From a virus, in IMG/VR virus record IMGVR_UViG_3300035698_022014, positions 11,602 to 75,601 of that record: a stretch of DNA of 64,000 nucleotides. The stretch is one strand, 5' to 3'. Under the pieces are notes generated by a model that was not told where the DNA came from, made no database searches, and was given only the letters and a program-made list of their open reading frames with translations. The stretch's first letter is position 1. Every line of letters starts with the position of its first letter. A program made the translations under genes and the position numbers. This document shows, piece by piece, positions 9,832-64,000 of this stretch.

Positions 9832-12126
9832 TTACGTAAATCTTGTTTGATCAGGCGACGTGATTGATCTGATAGGTGGCTCAGGGATGCTGTCACTTTC
9901 AGGAGTAGTACCTTCTAATGGAGGCTCTGCTCCATCAGCCCTTTCACCCACACTGGACGGGTTGTAGTTGAACTGCGGTGCGTCTATTTTCTGCTTGACT
10001 TCAGCAGGTTGAGCGCCACCGTCTGCCAATTGTATAACGTCGTCAATGTATACAATCGGTCCAGCTATATGAACATTGCCTGAACCTGTTAATCTCATTT
10101 CTGAATTGGAAGATGCATTCAATCTCCCACTTCCTGAATCTAGGAACATGGCTGTCGACTTCAATGAAAGTAGTCCACCTGAATTTATGTTTGTTGTTGT
10201 TTTTGCATTGATGAACACATTTGTTTCAGATCCTATAGAGACAAAGCTCTCTGACTTCATTGCAATCGCACTTCCTGAATTGATTCTAAGATTACCCTTC
10301 GACTGCATAGATATTGTTCCTTCGTCAGAATTGAGAAACAAGTTTTGCTTAGGACTGACAAACATGTTACCTTGTGATTTCATATGAATGCTGTCTTGTG
10401 ACTCTACATATACACCTTGGTTGCCTGTTATACTTGTCCACTCCCCACCTATTCTGATATTTTTCGACTTGAAGTTTATTGATTCGCCTGACTCAAACAC
10501 AATGTTTTTTGCTGTCCTGATGCTAATGTTTTCAACATTGGAATCGAATCCTATTGAAGCACTTCTTATGTCTGTTCGATCAGCACCATTGAGTTCAATC
10601 TTCCCTGCACTACCAATCTGTACATTACCGTGAACTATTTGCTTGTAATCGCCTTGGATTTCCTCGACCTTGTTCCCTTTAATTAACGTGTGACAATCGC
10701 CATCGATTGTGACGAGATTGTTTCCTCTTATATACACGTGATGGTTTCGCTCGTGTATATCATACGTGTCGTTGACGTTCTTGTGAGTTGTGCTCGTCGG
10801 TGCTATTTGAATATAGGAACCACTGTGGTGCCATATCATGATTCGTTCTGCACCAGGCGTATCATCGAGCTCAATCGAGTGACCTGATGCTGTCTCAACT
10901 ACTCTGTTATACGGATATTGAGCAGCATATGCAGAAGCTGGTTCTTCCCATGATGTAGTTTCAGCAGGTGTCGGCGGCGTTGTGTTCATGTATCCGCTAT
11001 ACGGATCGTTCGACGCAACTTGACCATCAGGTTGAGGCGTGTCAGTAGGTCCGCCTATAACAGAAGGGTTTTTTCTTTGGTAGTATTTGTTGATGCTGTC
11101 TACAGTAATGGTGCCGTCACTGCCACGCCATCCAGGATTATTGGTCCATGCTTGTCCGCCAACAGGATATACGATAGTGTCGCCTGATCTCGAAGCAAAT
11201 GCTGGTGCAGCTTGCATTATACCTAATCCAGATGTGTTACGATAATTCCACCTTTTTAGATACAGACCATAGGCGCGCAACTGTTCTGCAGGTGTCGAAC
11301 TAGCTATTGATTGGGGCGTGTACTTGGTTCCGTTTCTATTGTTTATGTCTGTCAGTGCATTAGACCCTAGTTGGAAAAACCCTGCATAACCAAACCTATT
11401 AATTACAGACGGATTGTAGGTGCTTTCGCCTGCAATAATTCCATAGACTTGTTCTCTTGATAGACCATATTGACTTTTCAATATCGACAATTCACTTTGA
11501 AACTCTTTGTCATTGTCGAGCGCGTCTATCTTTGCTTGCATATCAGCACCAACAAACGCTGATGAAGTTCCTTGACTATTCTCCGACTCGTTTACATCGT
11601 TGCCCCACAAGTTTCCGTTCCCGACACTACTGTGGTTTCTTATTTTGCCACCTGCTATTGGGATTTCTTTTACGCGATTTGTTTCAAGGGCCTCGTTGTA
11701 TGTCTCGTTTAAAAACTCGCCTGTTGCTAGCTTTGAAACTGGTGACAGTCCTAAATCCCTTGGTCTTGATCCTTGGGCTTGTCTATCATAATTTTCAACA
11801 GGGATTGCGCCCCATCCTGTTGTTGCAGGATCGACCAAAGCAGTGATTTGTGTTGGAATCAGGCCCAACAACATTGGCTGTTGGGCATCTCTACCATCAA
11901 CGAAGAAACCAAACATCCACGCGTTCAGCGGCGGAACAGTGAAGTTCACGTCGTGGCTTCCTATAATCAAGGTGGCCCAAGGCAGATCCTCGGTAGGGAC
12001 GTCACGGTTGGAGCCATGGATTCCAAATGCTCTGACCTGTACTCTACCTTCTGCACGCGGATCTTCGCGATTTTCAACTACACCAATAAAAAACAACGGC
12101 TGAATAAAACCTAAACCTGTATCCAT
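9832..12126 (-). CDS. Baseplate hub/needle gp5 with an internal lysozyme-fold (transglycosylase-like) domain
   Basis: GVVENREDP...GRVQVR OB fold, YPYNRVVETASGH, beta-helix repeats; insert with GESTYNP...GFFQL. Confidence 0.9.
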   Translation of the reverse strand: MDTGLGFIQPLFFIGVVENREDPRAEGRVQVRAFGIHGSNRDVPTEDLPWATLIIGSHDVNFTVPPLNAWMFGFFVDGRDAQQPMLLGLIPTQITALVDPATTGWGAIPVENYDRQAQGSRPRDLGLSPVSKLATGEFLNETYNEALETNRVKEIPIAGGKIRNHSSVGNGNLWGNDVNESENSQGTSSAFVGADMQAKIDALDNDKEFQSELSILKSQYGLSREQVYGIIAGESTYNPSVINRFGYAGFFQLGSNALTDINNRNGTKYTPQSIASSTPAEQLRAYGLYLKRWNYRNTSGLGIMQAAPAFASRSGDTIVYPVGGQAWTNNPGWRGSDGTITVDSINKYYQRKNPSVIGGPTDTPQPDGQVASNDPYSGYMNTTPPTPAETTSWEEPASAYAAQYPYNRVVETASGHSIELDDTPGAERIMIWHHSGSYIQIAPTSTTHKNVNDTYDIHERNHHVYIRGNNLVTIDGDCHTLIKGNKVEEIQGDYKQIVHGNVQIGSAGKIELNGADRTDIRSASIGFDSNVENISIRTAKNIVFESGESINFKSKNIRIGGEWTSITGNQGVYVESQDSIHMKSQGNMFVSPKQNLFLNSDEGTISMQSKGNLRINSGSAIAMKSESFVSIGSETNVFINAKTTTNINSGGLLSLKSTAMFLDSGSGRLNASSNSEMRLTGSGNVHIAGPIVYIDDVIQLADGGAQPAEVKQKIDAPQFNYNPSSVGERADGAEPPLEGTTPESDSIPEPPIRSITSPDQTRFT

Positions 12127-50864: not shown

Positions 50865-51469
50865 TTAAAATTCAAGGTAAAATCGACCGTGAAGTAAACG
50901 TTGCTTGTTCAGGTGGAGTCGACTCCATGGCTGTTGTCGACTTCCTGATGCAAAACCACAAAGTGAATTTGTTGTTTTTTGATCATGGTACAGAGACATC
51001 AACTGATGCAAGAAACTTCATCACAGAGAAATTCACACAAAGAGAATTTTCTGATGGAACACGTGTTGAATTTGGCAACGTCCAAAACAGGAAAACAAAA
51101 TCTGAATCGTGGGAAGAATATTGGAGGAATGAACGATATGCGTGGTTCCACTCATTTGACAGTCCTGTTATTACCTGTCACCATCTTGACGACTGTGTTG
51201 AAACGTGGCTATGGTCATCCATTCATGGGAACGGTAAGATTATCCCATATGCAAACCTAAACGTCATCCGTCCGTTCCGCCAGAACAGAAAAACAGAATT
51301 TACCAACTGGGCAAGACGAAAGGACATCTCTTGGATCGAGGATGCATCTAATCAAGATGTGAAACACATGAGAAACTTCATTCGTCGTGATCTCATGCCT
51401 AAAGCATTGGTTGTCAACCCTGGACTGCACAAAGTTGTGGAAAAGAAGGTTGTGGCAGATGCACCCTAA
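50861..51469 (+). CDS. tilS: TilS-like PP-loop ATPase (catalytic domain only)
   Basis: ACSGGVDS, R..RY, T.HH.DD..ET, IRP, W.ED.SN......RN.IR. Confidence 0.82.
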   Translation: MIKIQGKIDREVNVACSGGVDSMAVVDFLMQNHKVNLLFFDHGTETSTDARNFITEKFTQREFSDGTRVEFGNVQNRKTKSESWEEYWRNERYAWFHSFDSPVITCHHLDDCVETWLWSSIHGNGKIIPYANLNVIRPFRQNRKTEFTNWARRKDISWIEDASNQDVKHMRNFIRRDLMPKALVVNPGLHKVVEKKVVADAP

Positions 51470-54820: not shown

Positions 54821-56650
54821 ATGACTGAAAAATTTGAAATACTGACACCACGTCAACACGTAAGGCTAAAAACAGGGATGTGGCTTGGTTCGACATCTAT
54901 CGAGGAGATCGATAGGTTTGTTGTGGGCAAGTGGGATAGAGTGTCCTATGTTCCTGCATTGTCAAAAATGATCGACGAGATTGTTGATAATAGCATCGAC
55001 GAAGCAATCAGAACAGATTTCAAGCACGCCAATAAAATAGGGGTCTCTATTGACGGTGATACTGTCACCATCGTTGATAATGGTAGAGGGATCCCACAGG
55101 ATGATATTCTAGATGTATCCACCAACGAAATGATTTCAAGACCTGTTGCAGCGTGGACAAGAAACAATTCTGGTACGAGCTTTTCAAGTGAAAGAACATC
55201 TATTGGCTCGCACGGACTCGGGGCAGCGCTTGTAAATTACATGTCAACAAGTTTTGTTGGACACACATGGCAGAATGGTAAATGCATTGAGGTAAATTGT
55301 CTCAATGGTGCTGAAACAATTGAGACAAAAACGAAGAAGAAAGAAGGGCATGGCACATCTGTATCCTTTACTCCTGATTTCAGTCTTTTAGAAGTTAGTG
55401 GAGTATTAGAGCTTGATACCGTTGCTTTGGTTGAAGATAGGTTGATGTCTCTACAATTGGCATTTCCTGAAATTCAGTTCTCGTTCAATGGAAGCAAGAT
55501 TAAGGTAACCGATCTCAAAAAGTATGCAGCGTTGTTTACTCCACAAGATGCGTCCGTAATTGTTGAAAAGACAGACGACCTATCGTTCTTCTTTGCTGCG
55601 TCTGATGACGGGTTTCGTTCAAATAGCTTTGTCAATGGTGTGAATACACGTCAGGGTGGTGTGTATGTTGACTACATCGTCAACAATGTGGTGGACGAAC
55701 TTGGTGGAATGATCAAAAAGAAATACAAAATTGAAGTTGCTAAATCCACATTGAAGAATGGGATCACCTTTGTGATGTTTGCACGTGGCTTCACAAACCC
55801 AAAGTTCGACAGTCAGACTAAAGAGAGATTGACCAATCCACTTATAGATGTTCGGGAACATTTTGAGAAATCAGGCACGAAACCTTTTCAACACATTGCT
55901 AAGAGACTGTTTGTGGCACATGATATCATCGAGCCGATCATTGCTGCTCAGATTGCAAAGAAAGAGCAACAAGATCGACGTGAGGCACTTCAAGCACAAA
56001 AGAAACTCAAGAAGGTTAAAGTTGCAAAACACATTTCTGCCTCCTCGCCTGATGCGACACTCTTCTTGACTGAAGGCCAATCTGCATCAGGTTTTTGTAT
56101 CAAAGTTCGCGACCCAAAAATGCACGGGATGTATCCTTTGCGTGGTAAGGTAATGAACATCTGGGACATGAAGGCATCAGACGTTTTGAAAAACAAAGAA
56201 CTTAGTGAACTTGTCGCTGTCCTCGGACTGAACATTAACGATCCGAGCAGCGCTGAATTTGCTCACTATAAGAACATTGCAATCCTCGCTGACGCTGATA
56301 AAGACGGTGGACACATTGCTGCTCTTCTGGTAACATTCTTCTATAAGTTTTGGCCAAAACTGTTGTCTGATGGTCGGATCAGAATCACGCGAACACCTAT
56401 TATGATCTCCACAAAGGGCAAGGAGACATCGTGGTTCTACACATATAAGGAAGCAGAGGAATTCAAAAAGGATGCAACTAATGGGTATGTACATCGCTTC
56501 ATAAAAGGTCTTGGATCTCTTGAAGAGAGTGAGTATTCTGTGATTCTGAACGACCCAACAATGGATCAGGTTACAGTCGATGATGTAGGACTGTTTGAAG
56601 TGATGTTTGGCAGTGACTCGAGCCTCCGCAAAAAGTTCATGCTGACATGA
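54821..56650 (+). CDS. Type II topoisomerase large subunit (fused gp39+gp60)
   Basis: EIVDNS.DE, DNGRGIP, FDSQTKE, TEG.SA, PLRGK, DADKDG.HI, KGLGS. Confidence 0.95.
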   Translation: MTEKFEILTPRQHVRLKTGMWLGSTSIEEIDRFVVGKWDRVSYVPALSKMIDEIVDNSIDEAIRTDFKHANKIGVSIDGDTVTIVDNGRGIPQDDILDVSTNEMISRPVAAWTRNNSGTSFSSERTSIGSHGLGAALVNYMSTSFVGHTWQNGKCIEVNCLNGAETIETKTKKKEGHGTSVSFTPDFSLLEVSGVLELDTVALVEDRLMSLQLAFPEIQFSFNGSKIKVTDLKKYAALFTPQDASVIVEKTDDLSFFFAASDDGFRSNSFVNGVNTRQGGVYVDYIVNNVVDELGGMIKKKYKIEVAKSTLKNGITFVMFARGFTNPKFDSQTKERLTNPLIDVREHFEKSGTKPFQHIAKRLFVAHDIIEPIIAAQIAKKEQQDRREALQAQKKLKKVKVAKHISASSPDATLFLTEGQSASGFCIKVRDPKMHGMYPLRGKVMNIWDMKASDVLKNKELSELVAVLGLNINDPSSAEFAHYKNIAILADADKDGGHIAALLVTFFYKFWPKLLSDGRIRITRTPIMISTKGKETSWFYTYKEAEEFKKDATNGYVHRFIKGLGSLEESEYSVILNDPTMDQVTVDDVGLFEVMFGSDSSLRKKFMLT

Positions 56651-58038
56651 GCAACCAACTAACAGACTTCTTTGAACAAGACGAACAAACACAGCGAAAG
56701 GATACTCCTCAAGTGTCGAAATCTAACATCAAAATGTATCCTCTTTCCGCGCTTGCAAGCAACGAGTTGAAAGATTACGCAATGTATACTATTGAGTCAC
56801 GTGCAATTCCAAACATGATCGATGGCATGAAACCTGTCAATAGGTTTTACCTTTATTCGTCTATCAAAAACTCCAAGAAGGAATTTAAGAAGGTGTCTGC
56901 TGTATCAGGCGTAGTCTCAGGATATGGTTACAACCACGGTGAGACGTCTGCTGCTGCAGCAGGTCAGTTAATGGCTGCAGATTGGGCAAATAACATATGT
57001 TTGATTCAAGGACGTGGGTCGTTTGGAACACGACTGGTCAACGATGCTGCTGCTCCACGATACACATATACAAAATTGCACGACAACTTCGAGAAGTATA
57101 TCAAGGACATTGACATCGCTCCTGTTCATAGTGACCCTGAGCATGAGCCTCCTGCATTCTACGTTCCGTCGATTCCGCTTGTTCTTGTAAATGGTATCAA
57201 GGGAATTGGTACAGGATTCGCAACAAACATTCTACCACGCGATCCTATCGAGCTTGCACGTGCATGTGAAGAGTATATCAATACAGGTGACGTAGTCAAT
57301 AAGGTCAATCTGAAGTTTCCCGATTTTCGAGGAACAGTGACGTACGACGTCGAGAATGATCGCTATGTCAGTCGTGGTATTTTTGAACGTAAGGGCAAGA
57401 CTGTTGTCACGATTACAGAAGTCCCTTATGGTTACGATAGAGAAAATTACGTGAAGATTCTCGATGTTCTTGAAGATAAGGGCCTGATCGTTTCATATGA
57501 TGATCTGTGTGACAAGGACGGATTTAAGTTTGAGGTCAAGCTCAAGCAAAACACCTCATCAGGATGGAGCGATGAAAAGATTCTCACGCAGTTTAAACTT
57601 GAGAAAATGTTCACAGAGAATCTTGTTGTAATCGATCACAATGGAAAGTTACGTGAGTATAAAGATGAGCGACAGCTGATCAAAGACTTTTGTGACTATC
57701 GCAATACTGTAATTGAAAAAAGAATTGCAAAAAGGATCGAGGAGTATGTTGAAGAGACGAGATGGCTCAATGCTAAAATGGAATTTATTCAGGCGGTAAT
57801 CGACAACAAGATTATATTCAAGAACATGAAAAAAGACCGTGTAGCAAAACAAATTGTTGACAACACATCTGCCAAAGACGAAGATGTTGATAAGCTGCTA
57901 CGAGTCAACATCATGAGTCTTACAGACGAAATGGTCAAGCAACTCGAAAAAGAATGTCAGGATGCGGAAGTTCAGTTGAAGTTTTGGTCCAAGACAACCA
58001 TCAAGAAGCAGTTTCTCGACGACTTGAAGCAACTGTGA
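56647..58038 (+). CDS. Type II topoisomerase medium subunit gp52
   Basis: RAIP..IDG.KPV.R, Y.HGE.S, AAPRY. Confidence 0.95.
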   Translation: MSNQLTDFFEQDEQTQRKDTPQVSKSNIKMYPLSALASNELKDYAMYTIESRAIPNMIDGMKPVNRFYLYSSIKNSKKEFKKVSAVSGVVSGYGYNHGETSAAAAGQLMAADWANNICLIQGRGSFGTRLVNDAAAPRYTYTKLHDNFEKYIKDIDIAPVHSDPEHEPPAFYVPSIPLVLVNGIKGIGTGFATNILPRDPIELARACEEYINTGDVVNKVNLKFPDFRGTVTYDVENDRYVSRGIFERKGKTVVTITEVPYGYDRENYVKILDVLEDKGLIVSYDDLCDKDGFKFEVKLKQNTSSGWSDEKILTQFKLEKMFTENLVVIDHNGKLREYKDERQLIKDFCDYRNTVIEKRIAKRIEEYVEETRWLNAKMEFIQAVIDNKIIFKNMKKDRVAKQIVDNTSAKDEDVDKLLRVNIMSLTDEMVKQLEKECQDAEVQLKFWSKTTIKKQFLDDLKQL

Positions 58039-58063
58039 ATAAACAAATTGGAGGAATTATAAC

Positions 58064-58483
58064 ATGGTAACTGTAGAACTGATGTGCGATCAAGTAGATG
58101 GTATTATACTAGCAGATCTGAAATCTGTTGTTAGAGGGATACTTAACGATCCGTGGGAATGTCACCACAACCTTGATGAGACATCCCACTGTGTGGATGC
58201 ATTCCTGAAAGTGATTGAATACTACACGATAGTAAAGGATTATCAAGATTTTGTTGAAACTTTGGACTTTGAAAAACTCAAAACAGTTTCACCTTCGTCT
58301 GATAAAGTTGTAGGACATGTAGATATGGTTAACATCACTGAAATGAAAGATGGTTCTGCAGTGGTCGATTTCACTGTTGATGTTGAAAATCAGGCGACGT
58401 TGATCGGAGAAGGATTCAAGTATTTGTTGATGAAAGCAGCACTTGGCAAGACAGACGATGATATCATGAAGGCCTTCGATTGA
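58064..58483 (+). CDS. Hypothetical protein
   Basis: GGAGG RBS. Confidence 0.6.
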   Translation: MVTVELMCDQVDGIILADLKSVVRGILNDPWECHHNLDETSHCVDAFLKVIEYYTIVKDYQDFVETLDFEKLKTVSPSSDKVVGHVDMVNITEMKDGSAVVDFTVDVENQATLIGEGFKYLLMKAALGKTDDDIMKAFD

Positions 58484-58893
58484 TTTACGAGGTATATAAT
58501 AAGCCTGAACGGATCGAGATTGCTTTGCTTGACGAAGCAATCTCGTTTGCGTGTGATTACCTACACGTAGACATTGATGTTGTGTTAGAATTTAAAAAAC
58601 TTAAAAAGCACGTCTGTGGGTTTTGTGATTACGAAGGGGACGATGTGGTCATTACTCTATCACGTCGACTGAACACAAACGACGTGGTGAGGACACTGTT
58701 CCACGAAATGGTCCATGTCAAACAGCACCATGATGGAAGGCTTGTACATGGACGTCCTAGCATGTGGATGGGCGTTCCACACACAGAAATCTACGAGAAT
58801 CTTCCATGGGAATTGGAGGCATTCGATCTCGAAAACAAGATGGTGGAGTTGTTCAGTGTTGACAACTACACATCGGAACTATCGACCACATAA
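58480..58893 (+). CDS. HExxH zincin-like metallopeptidase
   Basis: HEMVHVKQ, Y..LPWE.EA. Confidence 0.75.
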   Translation: MIYEVYNKPERIEIALLDEAISFACDYLHVDIDVVLEFKKLKKHVCGFCDYEGDDVVITLSRRLNTNDVVRTLFHEMVHVKQHHDGRLVHGRPSMWMGVPHTEIYENLPWELEAFDLENKMVELFSVDNYTSELSTT

Positions 58894-58905
58894 AGGAGAA
58901 CGTCT

Positions 58906-59796
58906 ATGTCGTCACGTGCACAGCTTATGAAGCAAAAAGGTTTGATCAGCCCTCCTAAATGGCTGACACCAAACATCCACTATGAAACTATTGCAGGTTC
59001 TCAATCGTATGGGATTAACACAGACGAATCGGACATGGACATTGTCGGTTTTTGCATTCCTCCGAAAGAAGATGTGTTTCCTCACCTCGCAGGCATCATC
59101 CCAGGATTTGGAACACAAAGAGACAAGTTCAATGTCTGGCAACAACATCACGTCACAGACAAAGAAACACGACAGGAATACGATTTTGCCATCTACTCCA
59201 TTGTATCCTATATGTCGCTTGCAATGGACAACAATCCGAACATTCTCGATTCGCTGTTCACGCCTCAACGGTGTGTGTTGTTTTGTACCACTGTAGCACA
59301 GCTTGTTCGTGACAACAGAAAATTATTCTTGCACAAAGGAAGCTACCAGAAATTCAGAGGATATATGTTCAGCCAACTGCACAAAATTGGCACAAAGGCA
59401 AACTCTGCCAATGAGAAAAGAGCAGCAAACATTGCCAAGTTTGGTTTTTGTACAAAATTTGCAACACATACAATCCGTCTCGGACTACAATGTGAACAGA
59501 TTCTTGTTGAGCACGATTTGGACATTGAACGTAATCGAGAAGTGCTTAAATCAGTTCGTCGTGGTGAATGGTCTTATGAAAGAATCAAAGAGTGGGCAAC
59601 GCAGAAAGAACGACACCTTGATGACTTATATCAGAAGTCGACACTTCAACAGGCACCAGACGAGCAAGCAATCAAAGAATTGTTGATGAACTGTCTCGAG
59701 CAACATTACGGCTCTCTTAGCACAGCAGTCAAGCGTGAAGTCCCTTTACATCGCATGGTCAACGAGCTTCAAGCGGTTATCGACAAGTATAGTTAA
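58906..59796 (+). CDS. Pol-beta superfamily nucleotidyltransferase (YcgL/RlaP-like)
   Basis: GSQSYG.....SDMD, NPN.L..LF, K.A.H..RL. Confidence 0.85.
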   Translation: MSSRAQLMKQKGLISPPKWLTPNIHYETIAGSQSYGINTDESDMDIVGFCIPPKEDVFPHLAGIIPGFGTQRDKFNVWQQHHVTDKETRQEYDFAIYSIVSYMSLAMDNNPNILDSLFTPQRCVLFCTTVAQLVRDNRKLFLHKGSYQKFRGYMFSQLHKIGTKANSANEKRAANIAKFGFCTKFATHTIRLGLQCEQILVEHDLDIERNREVLKSVRRGEWSYERIKEWATQKERHLDDLYQKSTLQQAPDEQAIKELLMNCLEQHYGSLSTAVKREVPLHRMVNELQAVIDKYS

Positions 59797-60098
59797 AGTT
59801 TATACTTCAGCATCGGATCATGAGCCCATGTTATATCTGCAAATGTCAGATAACTGATAGCATCTAGCCTTGTCATGTCAAACCATTCACCTTTCAACCG
59901 CTTGTAGCCAATGTCCTTGTGCAAGAATTTTTCTAATGTGCGGACATTGTCCTCAGACACCTGTATCGTATGATGCAAGTGTAGTGTTTCAGAGTTCCCT
60001 GTTTGCAATTGCTTCAGCCTTGCTTCGGGATTTTTGCTGAATCCTATTTTTTGCTTCGTCTCAGTTCCAATCACGTAGATTTCCATCACATTCTCCAA
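59793..60098 (-). CDS. GIY-YIG (T5orf172-like) domain protein
   Basis: IYVI...KIGFS.NP..RL.QLQTGN...E..LH......GEWF; AATAAATA upstream. Confidence 0.85.
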   Translation of the reverse strand: MENVMEIYVIGTETKQKIGFSKNPEARLKQLQTGNSETLHLHHTIQVSEDNVRTLEKFLHKDIGYKRLKGEWFDMTRLDAISYLTFADITWAHDPMLKYKL

Positions 60099-60177
60099 TA
60101 AAACAATATTTATTAGAGTTGACTTCTGATTGTAACCATTATACGTTGATTGGGAACTACAAGGGATACGTCAACAG

Positions 60178-60417
60178 GTGGTCTACATGAAAATAACTTG
60201 CTCTGTGTGTGGCCTTCGTTGTAATCAGTCTATAATGCGAAACGAAAAGGTTTATGTTGAAACAGGGAAGTCCAAACAAGGTCTTTCGTGGGCAACATGG
60301 ATTGGAGCGTTGTTCGGAAATCGAAAGAGTCGCCGAGCAGTGTGGACATGGATTTTCAATTCAGGCCAGAGAACCTATAGCAGAAAGAGAACTGTCTGGT
60401 TCTGTCAAAACTGCTAG
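60178..60417 (+). CDS. Hypothetical zinc-ribbon protein
   Basis: CSVC...CQNC. Confidence 0.5.
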   Translation: MVYMKITCSVCGLRCNQSIMRNEKVYVETGKSKQGLSWATWIGALFGNRKSRRAVWTWIFNSGQRTYSRKRTVWFCQNC

Positions 60418-60474
60418 AGTACACGTACAAAACATCCTCGTTGACAAACACCTGTAGTTGAGGTTATAATAAAC

Positions 60475-60729
60475 ATGCAAAACAACATAGACGTGGAGTC
60501 AAAAACAATGATCACAATAGCTTCCATCAAATTGTTAAAAGTCGGCGAGCCCGACTCAGTTATTATGACCAACACCATCACAGAAGAAATTCGAGGTATT
60601 GTAGATATTGTTCACACTGCAAACCATGTAATTTTCAAAGTCAAAAACATCAAGCACGGTGGAACTTCAGAGGTCGTGTTTCGCGCTGACAGAGTACTGA
60701 TGTACTACACGTTCTTTGAGGAAGTATAA
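60475..60729 (+). CDS. Hypothetical protein
   Basis: Downstream of TTGACA-N18-TATAAT; start may be the ATG at 60508. Confidence 0.5.
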   Translation: MQNNIDVESKTMITIASIKLLKVGEPDSVIMTNTITEEIRGIVDIVHTANHVIFKVKNIKHGGTSEVVFRADRVLMYYTFFEEV

Positions 60730-60733
60730 ACAC

Positions 60734-61114
60734 ATGAACATCGAACTCACGTCCGATTTTGACAGAAACGTTGTCGAAAGATTTATTACCTTTTTATGTT
60801 CGGAATTGAACATTGTGCCACGAGAGCTAACGATCGCAACGTATCACATGTCTGACGCTCTGGGGATGTGCATTGATACGTCTCCAGACGAGTTTATCAT
60901 TCTTGTTAATGAGGAAGAGAGAAAGCCGATTGATATCTTTGTCACAATTGCTCATGAGATGGTTCACGTGAAGCAGTATATGAAAGACAATCTGGGGTGG
61001 TTTCTTGATAATCGGTCTGATATCCCTTACATGAAACGGTGGTGGGAGGTGGAGGCTTACAAAGACTCTGTCACACTGGTTGAAAAGTTTATACACACCA
61101 TCCAAAAAAATTAA
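60734..61114 (+). CDS. HExxH zincin-like metallopeptidase (paralog of 58480-58893)
   Basis: AHEMVHVKQY, PY..RWWE.EA. Confidence 0.75.
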   Translation: MNIELTSDFDRNVVERFITFLCSELNIVPRELTIATYHMSDALGMCIDTSPDEFIILVNEEERKPIDIFVTIAHEMVHVKQYMKDNLGWFLDNRSDIPYMKRWWEVEAYKDSVTLVEKFIHTIQKN

Positions 61115-61193
61115 ATTGAAAAATTCCAAGTTTGTTTGTCGAACTTGGAATTTTTGTTATAAATAGACTTACAATTCCACTAGAGAGAAGAAA

Positions 61194-61301
61194 ATGAACA
61201 TTCTACAAACAACATCATCGCTGCAGTACTGGGGACCGAATAATATCAATTCAGGTCGCATTGCATCCGTGAGCAAGATAGCCAAGGCTGCTTTAGAATA
61301 G
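61194..61301 (+). CDS. 35-aa late peptide (possible leader peptide; not in the ORF track)
   Basis: TATAAATA at 61158-61165, purine-rich RBS, MNILQTTSSLQYWGPNNINSGRIASVSKIAKAALE. Confidence 0.5.
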   Translation: MNILQTTSSLQYWGPNNINSGRIASVSKIAKAALE

Positions 61302-61330
61302 AAATGTTTACAAAAACTCTATTCTAAAGC

Positions 61331-61360
61331 AGCCCTGATATTATTATCAGGGTTTTTTTT
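61331..61360 (+). terminator. Intrinsic terminator overlapped by an upstream 17-bp hairpin
   Basis: CCCTGATA-ttat-TATCAGGG-T8. Confidence 0.85.
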
Positions 61361-61521
61361 GTTTTAGTGGTTGACCAAAAGTATGAATGAGTATAATAGT
61401 AACACTGCGGACATCCAAAAAAAGGAAGTTCGAAACGATAAAATGGTCCTCTTAACAAGGGTCCGACGCTCTTTAAATCTAACCGTACCTTATGATCTTA
61501 GAGAATCTTCTCGATAATAGA

Positions 61522-61631
61522 TTGAAAGCAGGATGTTTGAACAATACATGTTCAAACTCTGCGTGAGGCAAGAATTGGTGCGCTGCTCTTCGGAGTGTGT
61601 GTACACGACGATTGTTGCCTTCTGCTTTCAG
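61522..61631 (+). ncRNA. Candidate structured ncRNA (three-way junction)
   Basis: Closing stem UGAAAGCAG/CUGCUUUCA, a 9-bp hairpin, and a long hairpin capped by cUUCGg. Confidence 0.5.
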
Positions 61632-61754
61632 CTACATTGCCCCCAACCAATAAACAATGTAGCTGAAAACAGAAGAACTCACTACAACATTAGATGTTGA
61701 CATGTTTGGTGTTGTATCGTAAAAAGATGTAGTAATCAAAAAAGAGGCAAAGAG

Positions 61755-61967
61755 ATGAACATGAAGCGAGTCGAAAATGACTGGGTAAAGATTGCCCAAG
61801 AGTCTGTCAGAGTCGAACAAATTGGCGGTGCTGTATATGCTTTTTGTTCCGAAATTGCTGCATTGCGGTTGTTTCATAAGTATCGTGCAACAGATGAGAG
61901 TAAGATTCACGCAAACTACAGTGAAAACCTAAAGACTTGGTTTTTTAGTCTTGAGCTTCGGGATTAA
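61755..61967 (+). CDS. Conserved phage hypothetical protein
   Basis: Y.F.SE.A.LRL..KY...YS.NL..WFF.L. Confidence 0.65.
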   Translation: MNMKRVENDWVKIAQESVRVEQIGGAVYAFCSEIAALRLFHKYRATDESKIHANYSENLKTWFFSLELRD

Positions 61968-62001
61968 GAAATTGTTATGCTGACATTGAAGGAACTAGAC
62001 A

Positions 62002-62217
62002 ATGATTCGGAACAAAATTGAAAATCGTGAAATTATTTTGGACCTCACAGGACCTGACGGCAATGCATACGCTCTAATGGGCTATGCGAGAGACTTTGCA
62101 AAACAACTAGGAATTGATCATGAGCCGATCACAAATGAAATGAAAAGTGGTGATTACGAAAATCTCGTACTTACCTTTGATAGATACTTCGGACGTATCG
62201 TAACTTTGGAGCGTTAA
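62002..62217 (+). CDS. Conserved phage hypothetical protein
   Basis: DLTGPDGNA..LMG, M.SGDYE.L...FD..FG. Confidence 0.75.
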   Translation: MIRNKIENREIILDLTGPDGNAYALMGYARDFAKQLGIDHEPITNEMKSGDYENLVLTFDRYFGRIVTLER

Positions 62218-62218
62218 T

Positions 62219-62383
62219 ATGGATGTTTATGAAACCAACGGCTTTGCGAATCGCAAAGAATATCTAGAATCACTTGGAGAGGAGTATGGCCACATTGTTT
62301 TCGAACTCGCAGATCTTCTAGGTCCAAATGAAGACTTCGACGGATTGGTCACGTCACTAGAAGATTACTGCGAATTGTGCTAA
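62219..62383 (+). CDS. Small acidic conserved phage protein (not in the ORF track)
   Basis: NG..NR.EYL.SL.EEYG...LA..LG..EDFDGLV..LED. Confidence 0.7.
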   Translation: MDVYETNGFANRKEYLESLGEEYGHIVFELADLLGPNEDFDGLVTSLEDYCELC

Positions 62384-62424
62384 TCAACACTAACGAGACT
62401 TTTCAAACTGTTTGAAAATAGCTG

Positions 62425-62453
62425 TTGACAGTAAGTGATAATTAAACTATGCT
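62425..62453 (+). promoter_or_regulatory. Sigma70-type promoter for the tRNA cluster
   Basis: TTGACA-N17-TATGCT. Confidence 0.65.
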
Positions 62454-62570
62454 AGCATTAAGAAACAACATTATTTAAAAATCAATTTATAATCCTTGAA
62501 TTGGAAATTATGTGATCAGGTTGGGTGACGAGCCCGTAATCCCTGATTGACTATTTTATTATACTAACCT

Positions 62571-62654
62571 GGGCAGGTGGCTGAGTGGTCGAAGGCGGGG
62601 GACTGTAAATCCCTTTTGAAAGACGCGGTGGTTCAAATCCATCCCTGCTCACCA
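62571..62654 (+). tRNA. tRNA-Tyr(GTA)
   Basis: Full cloverleaf, GGGGA-CTGTAAA-TCCCT anticodon arm, long variable arm, A73, encoded CCA. Confidence 0.92.
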
Positions 62655-62923
62655 GATACAATACAATACAACAAGAAAAGAGTTATCTCTGCATATAACA
62701 TATTTTGTTAGAGCGGCTTTGCTGCACAAATAATGAAAGTTTATAACTTGTTGTGTTGTTAAAAATTGGTACTGGATTTAATATTCGGTTGAATCGCACA
62801 TAGGCGAAAGCACAGTGTAGAGCCTACCACATTCACGACACTATATTCGAGATGCGGGAACTGCAGATGTCCGACAGCATAGATAAACACATAAACCTGG
62901 TAGTGTCGTGAATAATTAATAAC

Positions 62924-62959
62924 GGACCATTAGCTCAGTTGGTTAGAGCAGCGGACTTA
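62924..62959 (+). pseudogene. tRNA 5' half truncated in the anticodon loop
   Basis: GGACCAT-TA-GCTC-AGTTGGTTA-GAGC-A-GCGGA-CTT, followed directly by the endonuclease leader. Confidence 0.8.
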
Positions 62960-63035
62960 AATCTCTTTTTGTATAAATAATAGCGTGGATCTTGGCATAC
63001 CAAGATCCATCTACTCTAGAATGCAAAAAGAGATT
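62960..63035 (+). promoter_or_regulatory. Late promoter flanked by an anti-RBS pairing (homing endonuclease control region)
   Basis: AATCTCTTTTTG (62960-62971) pairs with CAAAAAGAGATT (63024-63035); TATAAATA at 62972-62979. Confidence 0.75.
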
Positions 63036-63040
63036 CCAAC

Positions 63041-63703
63041 ATGAAACTATTTATATGCTGCCATTGTGGTAGTGAGCGTAAGAATGTAAACTCGTGGAAA
63101 AATCACGAACGAACTTGTCCATCTAATTCAAGCCGAAAATACAAAAATGGTATGACTGGTAAAAAAGGATCTAATCAACATACTAAGGCCAAAGAGTTGG
63201 GCAAACCTAAACCAGAAGTGTCAACAGAAACGCGCAACAAAATTAGAAATTCCAATATTGACCGAAAGCATACTCAGCAAACCAAAGATAAAATATCAAA
63301 GGCAAGATTGAAATACCTTGCTGAAAATCCTGACAAGGTTCCTTACAAATTAAACCATTATAGCAAAGGCCCGTCATATCCTGAAAGATATTGGAAGAAA
63401 GTTTTTGATAAGTTAAGAATTGAATATGTCGAACAATACCGAATACACACCTATCAGTTAGACTTTGCCTTAGTAGAAGAAAAGATTGACATTGAAATAG
63501 ACGGAGAACAGCATTATCAAGACGAAAGAATAGTAAAGAGTGATAAGCGTAGAAACGAATATCTTGAAGGTCTAGGTTGGAAAATAATAAGAATTCGTTG
63601 GTCAGAATATAAAAAGCTGATTGACAAACAAGATAGAATAGCTTATGTTGCTAGAATATTAAACAAAATACGGACGGGTACCCAAGTGGACAAAGGGAAC
63701 TGA
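63041..63703 (+). mobile_element. Free-standing homing endonuclease (zinc finger + NUMOD3-like + DUF559/Vsr-like nuclease)
   Basis: C..C...H...C, KHTQQTKDKIS, YQLDFA...IEIDGEQH...D..R..YL...GW.I.RI.W; the last 10 codons overlap tRNA-Lys. Confidence 0.85.
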
Positions 63704-63755
63704 CTTTTAATCAGTCGCGTAAGCTTCGAGGGTTCGAATCCCTCCCCGTTCACCA
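63672..63755 (+). tRNA. tRNA with Lys(TTT) anticodon on a Tyr-type class II body
   Basis: GGACGGG/CCCGTTC acceptor, ACTGA-CTTTTAA-TCAGT, 12-nt variable region, GAGGG-TTCGAAT-CCCTC, ACCA. Confidence 0.88.
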
Positions 63756-63773
63756 CTTAACAGTTTAAATATT

Positions 63774-63848
63774 GCGCCAGTAGTTCAGTGGTAGAGCATC
63801 TTACTCTCAAACCGCGTGTCCTAGGTTCAAATCCTAGATGGTTCACCA
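63774..63848 (+). pseudogene. Chimeric tRNA-like sequence (nominal CTC anticodon) whose halves do not pair
   Basis: Good D and T arms and CCA, but acceptor GCGCCAG/ATGGTTC has 2 mismatches and anticodon stem TCTTA/ACCGC does not pair. Confidence 0.75.
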
Positions 63849-63894
63849 AAAAATGATATGGGATGATCAAATCCTGTGGTCAATACTAAATAAC

Positions 63895-63981
63895 GGAAGA
63901 TGATTTAATCTGGTGATTAAGACTGATTGCTAATCAAATCGTGGAGAAATCCATGGGGTTCAATTCCTCCTTCTTCCGCCA
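63895..63981 (+). tRNA. tRNA-Ser(GCT), somewhat atypical
   Basis: GGAAGA/TCTTCC acceptor, TGA-TTGCTAA-TCA, long variable arm GTGGA/TCCAT, G73, CCA. Confidence 0.8.
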
Positions 63982-64000
63982 ATAACAAAGTATATTTTGC

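Follow-up and report, generated by a model that had tools for sequence, protein, structure and literature searches.

A stretch of viral DNA of 64,000 nucleotides (nt), referred to here as the window (positions 11,602 to 75,601 of IMG/VR record IMGVR_UViG_3300035698_022014), comprises the last 64 kb of a 75.6-kb contig whose end cuts through a tRNA cluster. Sequencing records place the DNA in a T4-like phage from salt-lake and lake metagenomes. Close to the contig end lie two complementary parts of a tRNA gene, about 850 nt apart, which raises the question of what gene they belonged to, what separated them, and whether a functional tRNA could still be made from them. The most probable answer is that a mobile cassette with a free-standing homing endonuclease was inserted into a canonical tRNA-Lys(UUU) gene of a phage, at its anticodon, and that the two halves are now pseudogene fragments.

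The orphan 5′ half (62924-62958, plus strand) consists of the acceptor strand, the D arm, the 5′ strand of the anticodon stem, and the loop nucleotides C32-U33-U34 of a class I tRNA-Lys(UUU) gene, and reads GGACCAT, canonical D arm, GCGGA, and CTT. The orphan 3′ half of the same gene (63811-63848, plus strand) covers positions 39-76 including CCA, and reads A-CCGC, GTGTC, T arm, and ATGGTTC-A-CCA. As stated in a preliminary description of this DNA, the two are complementary: all seven acceptor pairs can form (one of them G-U), as can four of the five pairs of the anticodon stem, where A31 faces A39. Both helices are present in the minimum free energy (MFE) fold of the whole 925-nt stretch.

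An exact search of IMG/VR with the 5′ half returned two contigs, L001 and L002, in which an identical 5′ half (35/35 nt) and a 97%-identical 3′ half form a single gene, 49 nt apart. This gene was assigned to tRNA-Lys(UUU) by ARAGORN with introns allowed and reached 55.9 bits in Rfam. In addition, Logan contigs from four metagenomes were compared with window positions 62400-64000, and an uninterrupted allele (...GCGGA CTTTTAA TCCGC...) with the anticodon loop CTTTTAA was found in the same lake metagenomes, in three further samples (X1, X2, and X3). In X2 record 10, positions 62929-62958 continue directly into TTAATCCGCGTGTCC; X1 record 7 and X3 record 16 contain this allele as well, continuing into the flank downstream. 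Because L001/L002 and the uninterrupted allele hold both halves together, 62924-62958 and 63811-63848 are, by this comparison, halves of one tRNA-Lys(UUU) gene, beyond what chance complementarity would give, and an origin from two separate tRNA genes, which the relatives might have revealed, is not what they contain. These sequences likewise support the earlier suggestion that the gene was destroyed when DNA was inserted at its anticodon loop.

The anticodon recovered from these endonuclease-free sequences (by ARAGORN from L001/L002 and directly from the intact allele) is UUU. The gene had previously been proposed as a tRNA-Ile2, a TilS substrate with a CAU anticodon; this identity is rejected because the loop of the intact allele reads CTTTTAA and the relatives also read UUU. 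The TilS-like gene mentioned along with it is indeed in the window (PF01171 at 50894-51388), and a likelier substrate is a tRNA(CAU) with C4-G69 and C5-G68 at 4181-4257 of L002, past the end of the window's contig.

The interruption is polymorphic. Intact and cassette alleles occur at the same locus in the same metagenomes, and the cassette is absent from L001/L002. A metagenome scan for the cassette returned only one near-identical copy, the JGI contig L086, which is 99.2% identical over 62771-63930. Moreover, X2 record 9 (910 nt) covers 62929-63838 in one piece, and X3 record 15 and X1 records 5 and 6 also cover the cassette. Contig depth was 4.2, 7.5, and 6 in the cassette versus 9.4, 31, and 24.6 downstream (X1, X2, and X3, respectively), so that, with depths that are rough (a single figure per contig), roughly one quarter to two fifths of the population has the cassette, which makes it the minority allele. 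Position 39 is A in the window but T in both L086 and the intact allele (TCCGC versus ACCGC), and A39, which breaks the fifth pair of the anticodon stem, is on these alleles a later change in the window copy.

The insert (62959-63810, 852 nt) substitutes only TT or TTAA (2-4 nt) of the intact loop and ends in A; its non-coding part is comprised of an 82-nt leader and tRNA sequence. The leader (62959-63040, plus strand) contains a TATAAATA box at 62972-62979, which corresponds to a T4-type late-promoter box, a long hairpin, and a purine-rich ribosome-binding stretch before the ATG. In the hairpin, 62961-62974 pairs with 63021-63034 around an inner hairpin (62981-63013), with an MFE of -35.5 kcal/mol (z = -7.4; none of 200 shuffled sequences folds as well), and the outer stem pairs the sequence upstream of TATAAATA with the purine-rich stretch. 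T4 late promoters, and the sequestration of the ribosome sites of endonuclease genes in read-through transcripts, have been reviewed (PMC2988022), and by analogy the leader hairpin suggests that the gene may be translated only late, as in T4.

The endonuclease gene (63041-63703, plus strand; 220 aa) encodes an N-terminal Cys/His finger, a NUMOD3-like stretch, and a C-terminal Vsr-like (DUF559/MTES_1575/EDxHD-type) nuclease. It is followed by a complete tRNA-Lys(UUU) gene, the cargo (63672-63755, plus strand; 84 nt), which is of class II shape with a long variable arm, contains A73 and an encoded CCA, and is recognized by ARAGORN and Rfam (57.5 bits). The endonuclease open reading frame (ORF) runs into this tRNA, whose first 32 nt also provide its final 10 codons and stop. 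The tail encoded in this way, RTGTQVDKGN, is found in most of the homologs with 61-77% identity, although the 15 alignment columns in front of it vary. Because the tRNA-encoded tail is conserved in diverged homologs, the endonuclease and the long-armed tRNA probably travel as a constrained pair.

An 18-nt spacer separates the cargo from fragment Y (63774-63810, plus strand; 37 nt), the 5′ part (positions 1-38) of another tRNA, which begins with GCGCCAG, has the loop CTCTCAA, and runs in register into the old 3′ half. As previously noted, the 3′ half does not match this adjacent fragment (acceptor 5/7, anticodon stem 1/5); no anticodon stem is formed, and ARAGORN detects no tRNA there. The conserved G18 of fragment Y is mutated in L086 and X2, which together with A39 would fit neutral decay. 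The previous account of what lies between the halves, an endonuclease, a tRNA-Lys, and an unrelated 5′ half, thus stands, with the correction that the tRNA-Lys is long-armed and belongs to the insert.

With regard to annotation of the locus, ARAGORN reports only tRNA-Tyr (62571-62654) and the 84-nt tRNA-Lys(UUU). Rfam adds a borderline tRNA at 63774-63845 (30.4 bits, cut-off 29), whose acceptor and anticodon stems are mismatched, and, at 63895-63977, a gene resembling tRNA-Ser(GCU). The latter (63895-63980 in full) was missed by ARAGORN, scored as tRNA-Sec below threshold (41.6 versus 47 bits), and is 100% identical in L002. A DNA search of INPHARED returned matches to tRNA-Tyr only. Annotation as tRNA, split tRNA, or tRNA-Ile2 would be wrong both for the two halves and for the tRNA-like chimera at 63774-63848.

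The 220-aa protein matched the Vsr-like nuclease families PF18741 (3.3e-11) and PF04480 (5.7e-11), both above cut-offs, and PHROG 559/9084 (homing endonuclease); its best PDB match is 3r3p (I-Bth0305I, EDxHD family; 9.9e-5). The NUMOD3 match is weak (14.3 bits, cut-off 20.4), and some homologs have a precomputed match to PF07460. Among 573 homologs, D141, E152, D154, H158, and D168 are invariant across the 28 that were aligned, and the protein is 100% identical in L086 with its ORF intact. Judging from these matches, the ORF is an intact nuclease of a recognized homing family, Vsr-like/EDxHD, with its catalytic residues kept.

A profile-guided scan of IMG/VR yielded 80 loci, nearly all in phage tRNA clusters. 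For homologs of at least 42% identity, the nearest neighbour is tRNA-Lys in 35 of 51 distinct contexts, although Lys accounts for 12% of the tRNAs there, and the end of the ORF often overlaps the neighbouring tRNA-Lys by 9 nt. Homologs below 42% occur in 19 contexts, of which eight adjoin tRNA-Asn, three tRNA-Gln, and three tRNA-Lys. An unannotated homolog of 33% identity was also found in a cultured Tequatrovirus, Escherichia phage F2 (NC_054913, 158892-159515; L171 1501-2124), between tRNA-Met and tRNA-Arg(UCU), and in Rhizobium phage RHph_TM30 annotated copies of the endonuclease abut tRNA genes.

The same design recurs in approximately 15 distinct loci, including the window: the orphaned 5′ half of a tRNA is followed by a leader rich in A, in most cases with TATAAATA, by the endonuclease, and by a complete spare tRNA of matching anticodon. 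Such loci are found for Lys (L090, L091, L092, L093, L096, and L139), Asn (L109, L142, L144/145, and L146), Gln (L083/143, L157, and L162), and Ile (L084). Their orphan halves are unrelated but all are cut after C32-U33(-U34/35). For example, a homologous leader stands beside three unrelated orphan halves in L090-L092, TATAAATA leaders are present in L090-L093, and L109 contains the window's leader and the 5′ third of its ORF behind a tRNA-Asn half and with a tRNA-Asn cargo. A matching 3′ half is kept in L091, as in the window. Because the same junction and a homologous cassette are found in different host genes, these loci indicate what appears to be site-specific invasion rather than vertical descent.

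Several other observations were made on these loci. The leader and ORF 5′ third in L109 (2391-2674) are 77% identical at the nucleotide level to window 62931-63214, while the proteins overall are 45% identical, which suggests possible modular exchange within the family between Asn-linked and Lys-linked cassettes. Agreement between the acceptor strands of orphan and cargo was considered as a general rule and rejected, being found in only 2-3 of 13 loci (L090, L162, and perhaps L144). Class II shaped Lys, Asn, or CAU tRNAs are common in these phages, often right beside the endonuclease; long-armed tRNAs are located at window 63672-63755, at L006 10998-11081 and 17434-17518, and in L088-L090, L094, L101, L114, L117, and L120. 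A copy of the long-armed Asn tRNA with the anticodon arm deleted is located at about 3115-3190 of L002, and a more degenerate remnant at about 62800-62850 of the window.

A mechanism can be proposed for the homing cassette. The junction after C32-U33(-U34) is constant in the ~15 loci, which points indirectly to cleavage near the insertion site; the cleavage target, the cut site, and an immunity of the carrier are inferred. Briefly, the enzyme would cut canonical tRNA-Lys genes in or near the anticodon loop in co-infecting phages that lack the cassette, and repair from the cassette-bearing genome would copy the endonuclease and the spare tRNA together. The spare tRNA would preserve decoding by Lys(UUU), making the insertion harmless to its carrier, and its odd body (a different D arm and a long variable arm) may shield it from being cut. 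At the right junction, fragment Y, joined in register at position 37-39, may represent a microhomology join at the break, with a shared CT..AA loop frame. Translation could be confined to late transcripts by the leader hairpin in a T4-like manner.

A number of observations weigh against parts of this scheme. The late-promoter point is weakened by the finding of CATAAATA in L086, X2, and X3, that is, in three of the four other cassette copies or samples. The GACTTTTAATC loop region is common to cargo tRNAs and presumed targets, and in L091 the D arm of the cargo is the same as that of its orphan half. A test on the D arm gave no separation, with canonical intact Lys genes in 5 of 64 cases in endonuclease-bearing loci versus 1 of 10 in controls; orphan halves are mostly canonical, and intact Lys genes are rarely so in endonuclease-bearing and control loci alike. 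The donor of fragment Y was not found: IMG/VR contains no exact copy of it, and the matches in the collected loci were confined to generic D-arm sequence. For the origin of the cassette together with fragment Y, only generic D-arm/T-arm matches were obtained among the ~170 loci compared.

Of the alternatives, illegitimate recombination between tRNAs in a repeat-rich cluster, with the endonuclease as a passenger or inactive relic and no homing, survives best, though it is improbable. The right junction is itself a tRNA-tRNA chimera, and the cluster is littered with tRNA remnants (window ~62800-62850, L002, and L006). However, the ORF is intact, with invariant catalytic residues and a protein identical in L086, the junction after CT(T) is repeated beside homologous leaders in unrelated tRNA genes, and the family has a strong Lys or Asn neighbourhood.

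It was also proposed earlier that the halves might be processed and ligated into a functional tRNA. Rejoining appears unlikely because no ribozyme and no splicing motif were found. At E ≤ 1, Rfam detected no group I, group II, or other ribozyme family in 55000-64000 (no RF00028-type match), and a group I intron is further rejected by the final A of the insert, where G is expected as the last intron nucleotide, and by the mere 82 nt of the insert that are neither coding nor tRNA. Cofolding of the junctions gave no bulge-helix-bulge (BHB), EndA (PF01974) was found neither in the window fragment nor in a complete relative, and RtcB was not found; without a BHB motif and EndA, an archaeal-type intron or split tRNA is rejected as well. 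What is left is an 852-nt ribozyme-less intron between two exons, which proteins would excise (for example, enzymes that process tRNA ends, acting around the embedded tRNA) before a phage RNA ligase rejoined the exons; this is less probable still than recombination without homing. Enigmatic introns have been reported in phage tRNA genes (PMC6784885), the halves still pair in the fold of the whole precursor (acceptor 7/7, anticodon stem 4/5), and a complete relative (G001) with an Rnl1-like ligase has tRNA-shaped inserts of 47-49 nt at nearly the same site of its well-conserved tRNA-Lys and tRNA-Asn. On the other hand, the ends of the cassette are unlike those of the small inserts in G001, a 37-nt foreign tRNA fragment abuts the second exon and wrecks the geometry of the loop, and BHB and group I signals are lacking. 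In addition, T39 (as in L086) has become A in the window copy, the cassette brings its own tRNA-Lys(UUU) with the same anticodon, and an intact allele coexists in the population.

Finally, an assembly artefact fusing two strains or two tRNA genes, for which a contig that stops 150 bases downstream within the tRNA cluster and a population polymorphic at the site might speak, is far-fetched, since misassembly is excluded by independent contigs (X1, X2, X3, and L086) that cover or span both junctions and reproduce them.

The small inserts of G001, a complete-rated genome of 208 kb that includes L002, deserve description in their own right. No endonuclease of the window family was found in G001. 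Its only tRNA-Lys(UUU) and tRNA-Asn(GUU) genes (L002 3279-3404 and 3560-3682, equal to L005 11075-11200 and 11356-11478) each carry an insert, of 49 or 47 nt, that separates anticodon position 35 from position 36. The two share one fold: a short stem like that of an acceptor is followed by a linker, a hairpin similar to a T arm (with the loop UGCGAAU or UUCGAUU), and the 3′ strand with A and CAG/AAG after it. They thus resemble an armless mini-tRNA that starts and ends at the inferred splice sites. Exons in L001/L002 are 100% and 97% identical to the window, while spacers are 61-72% identical, and the insert-bearing exons of G001 are as conserved as neighbouring tRNAs. EndA and RtcB were not found in G001, whereas the Rnl1-like ligase is present. 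A pattern search for further inserts of this type returned only L001/L002 and one chance match in coding sequence (L170). The end of the window's contig (64000) falls exactly where the insert-bearing tRNA-Asn of the relative begins (L002 3549 onward), and the assembly may have been broken there at another polymorphic tRNA gene.

Other interrupted tRNA genes were observed among the collected loci. In a class II tRNA, probably Leu(UAA), at L005 15272-15393, the anticodon loop is interrupted by 36 nt that form a simple hairpin; ARAGORN calls this gene Phe(AAA) with an intron. Homologous inserts of 57-90 nt, a second small-insert family, are located at the boundary of the D arm and anticodon stem in phage tRNA-Lys, tRNA-Asn, and tRNA-Ile genes (L115 1836-1978 and 2601-2742, L119 4754-4883, and L136 4168-4331). 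In L006 (11588-12750, equal to L007 2120-3282), tRNA-Tyr is split by ~1070 nt containing an ORF on the opposite strand, and in its close relative L003 the gene is intact (11273-11360).

A more speculative extension of the homing-cassette reading, to which only modest credence is given, is that the family acts as a natural "cleave-and-rescue" drive, which would destroy the canonical tRNA-Lys, tRNA-Asn, or tRNA-Gln of competitors at the anticodon while carrying a resistant odd isoacceptor. The inserts of G001 might then be immunity elements, removed by RNase P-type processing and sealed by Rnl1, which would amount to ribozyme-free splicing in bacteria. If true, such pressure would explain both why Lys, Asn, and Met tRNAs of class II shape occur in these phages and why G001 has 47-49-nt inserts exactly at the anticodon in its sole tRNA-Lys and tRNA-Asn genes.

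The locus points to a large uncharacterized family of homing endonucleases of the Vsr-like type, with 573 homologs, which resides in the tRNA clusters of phages and has Lys, Asn, and Gln branches, and the unannotated copy in the tRNA region of a cultured Tequatrovirus makes its biochemistry testable at the bench. By bringing a spare tRNA with the same anticodon, a selfish gene would have a simple way to enter another gene while sparing its carrier the cost, a strategy that resembles synthetic cleave-and-rescue drives. It would also offer an explanation at the DNA level, beside host anticodon nucleases, for the variable shapes of phage tRNAs and for fragment-rich clusters.

Several known systems resemble the cassette in part. 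The "enigmatic" tRNA introns of Lak megaphages, one of which has a predicted tRNA shape (Devoto et al. 2019, PMC6784885), are likewise anticodon-loop inserts in phage tRNA genes with no ribozyme assigned, and are best compared with the 47-49-nt inserts of L002. In contrast, the insert in the window is a protein-coding cassette with a complete tRNA, flanked by halves with signs of decay and with no evidence for its removal. I-Bth0305I (PMC3239194; PDB 3R3P), an EDxHD endonuclease in a group I intron in recA, is also of phage origin and shares the Vsr-like catalytic domain with E/D/H/D residues and possibly a NUMOD-type N-terminal region. The window enzyme differs from it in having a presumed tRNA-gene target and an N-terminal Cys/His finger and in lacking an intron ribozyme, and the sequence similarity is weak (E 1e-4).

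Collaborative or intronless homing is represented in T4-like phages by mobE and by F-CphI with the psbA intron (PMC2790892, PMC2988022, and PMC6083498). There, as is proposed for the window, a free-standing enzyme cuts the endonuclease-free allele and is copied with its flanks, and site differences protect the carrier; however, their cargo is an intron or an unrelated neighbour, whereas that of the window would functionally replace the destroyed gene. The closest parallel is SegB of phage T4, a free-standing GIY-YIG endonuclease that recognizes a 27-bp site with a conserved tRNA T-arm motif and whose homing carries neighbouring tRNAs (PMC2330249). Both genes are free-standing endonuclease genes in a tRNA cluster of T4-like phages and are present or absent among relatives. 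However, SegB is intergenic and has its site at the T arm, while the Vsr-like/EDxHD gene in the window splits a tRNA at the anticodon and overlaps a spare tRNA of the same anticodon. Anticodon insertion coupled to a spare isoacceptor was not found described in the literature searched. The cassette is therefore of a known kind, the free-standing homing endonucleases of phage tRNA clusters, in which its insertion at the anticodon together with a spare isoacceptor is unusual and recurrent.

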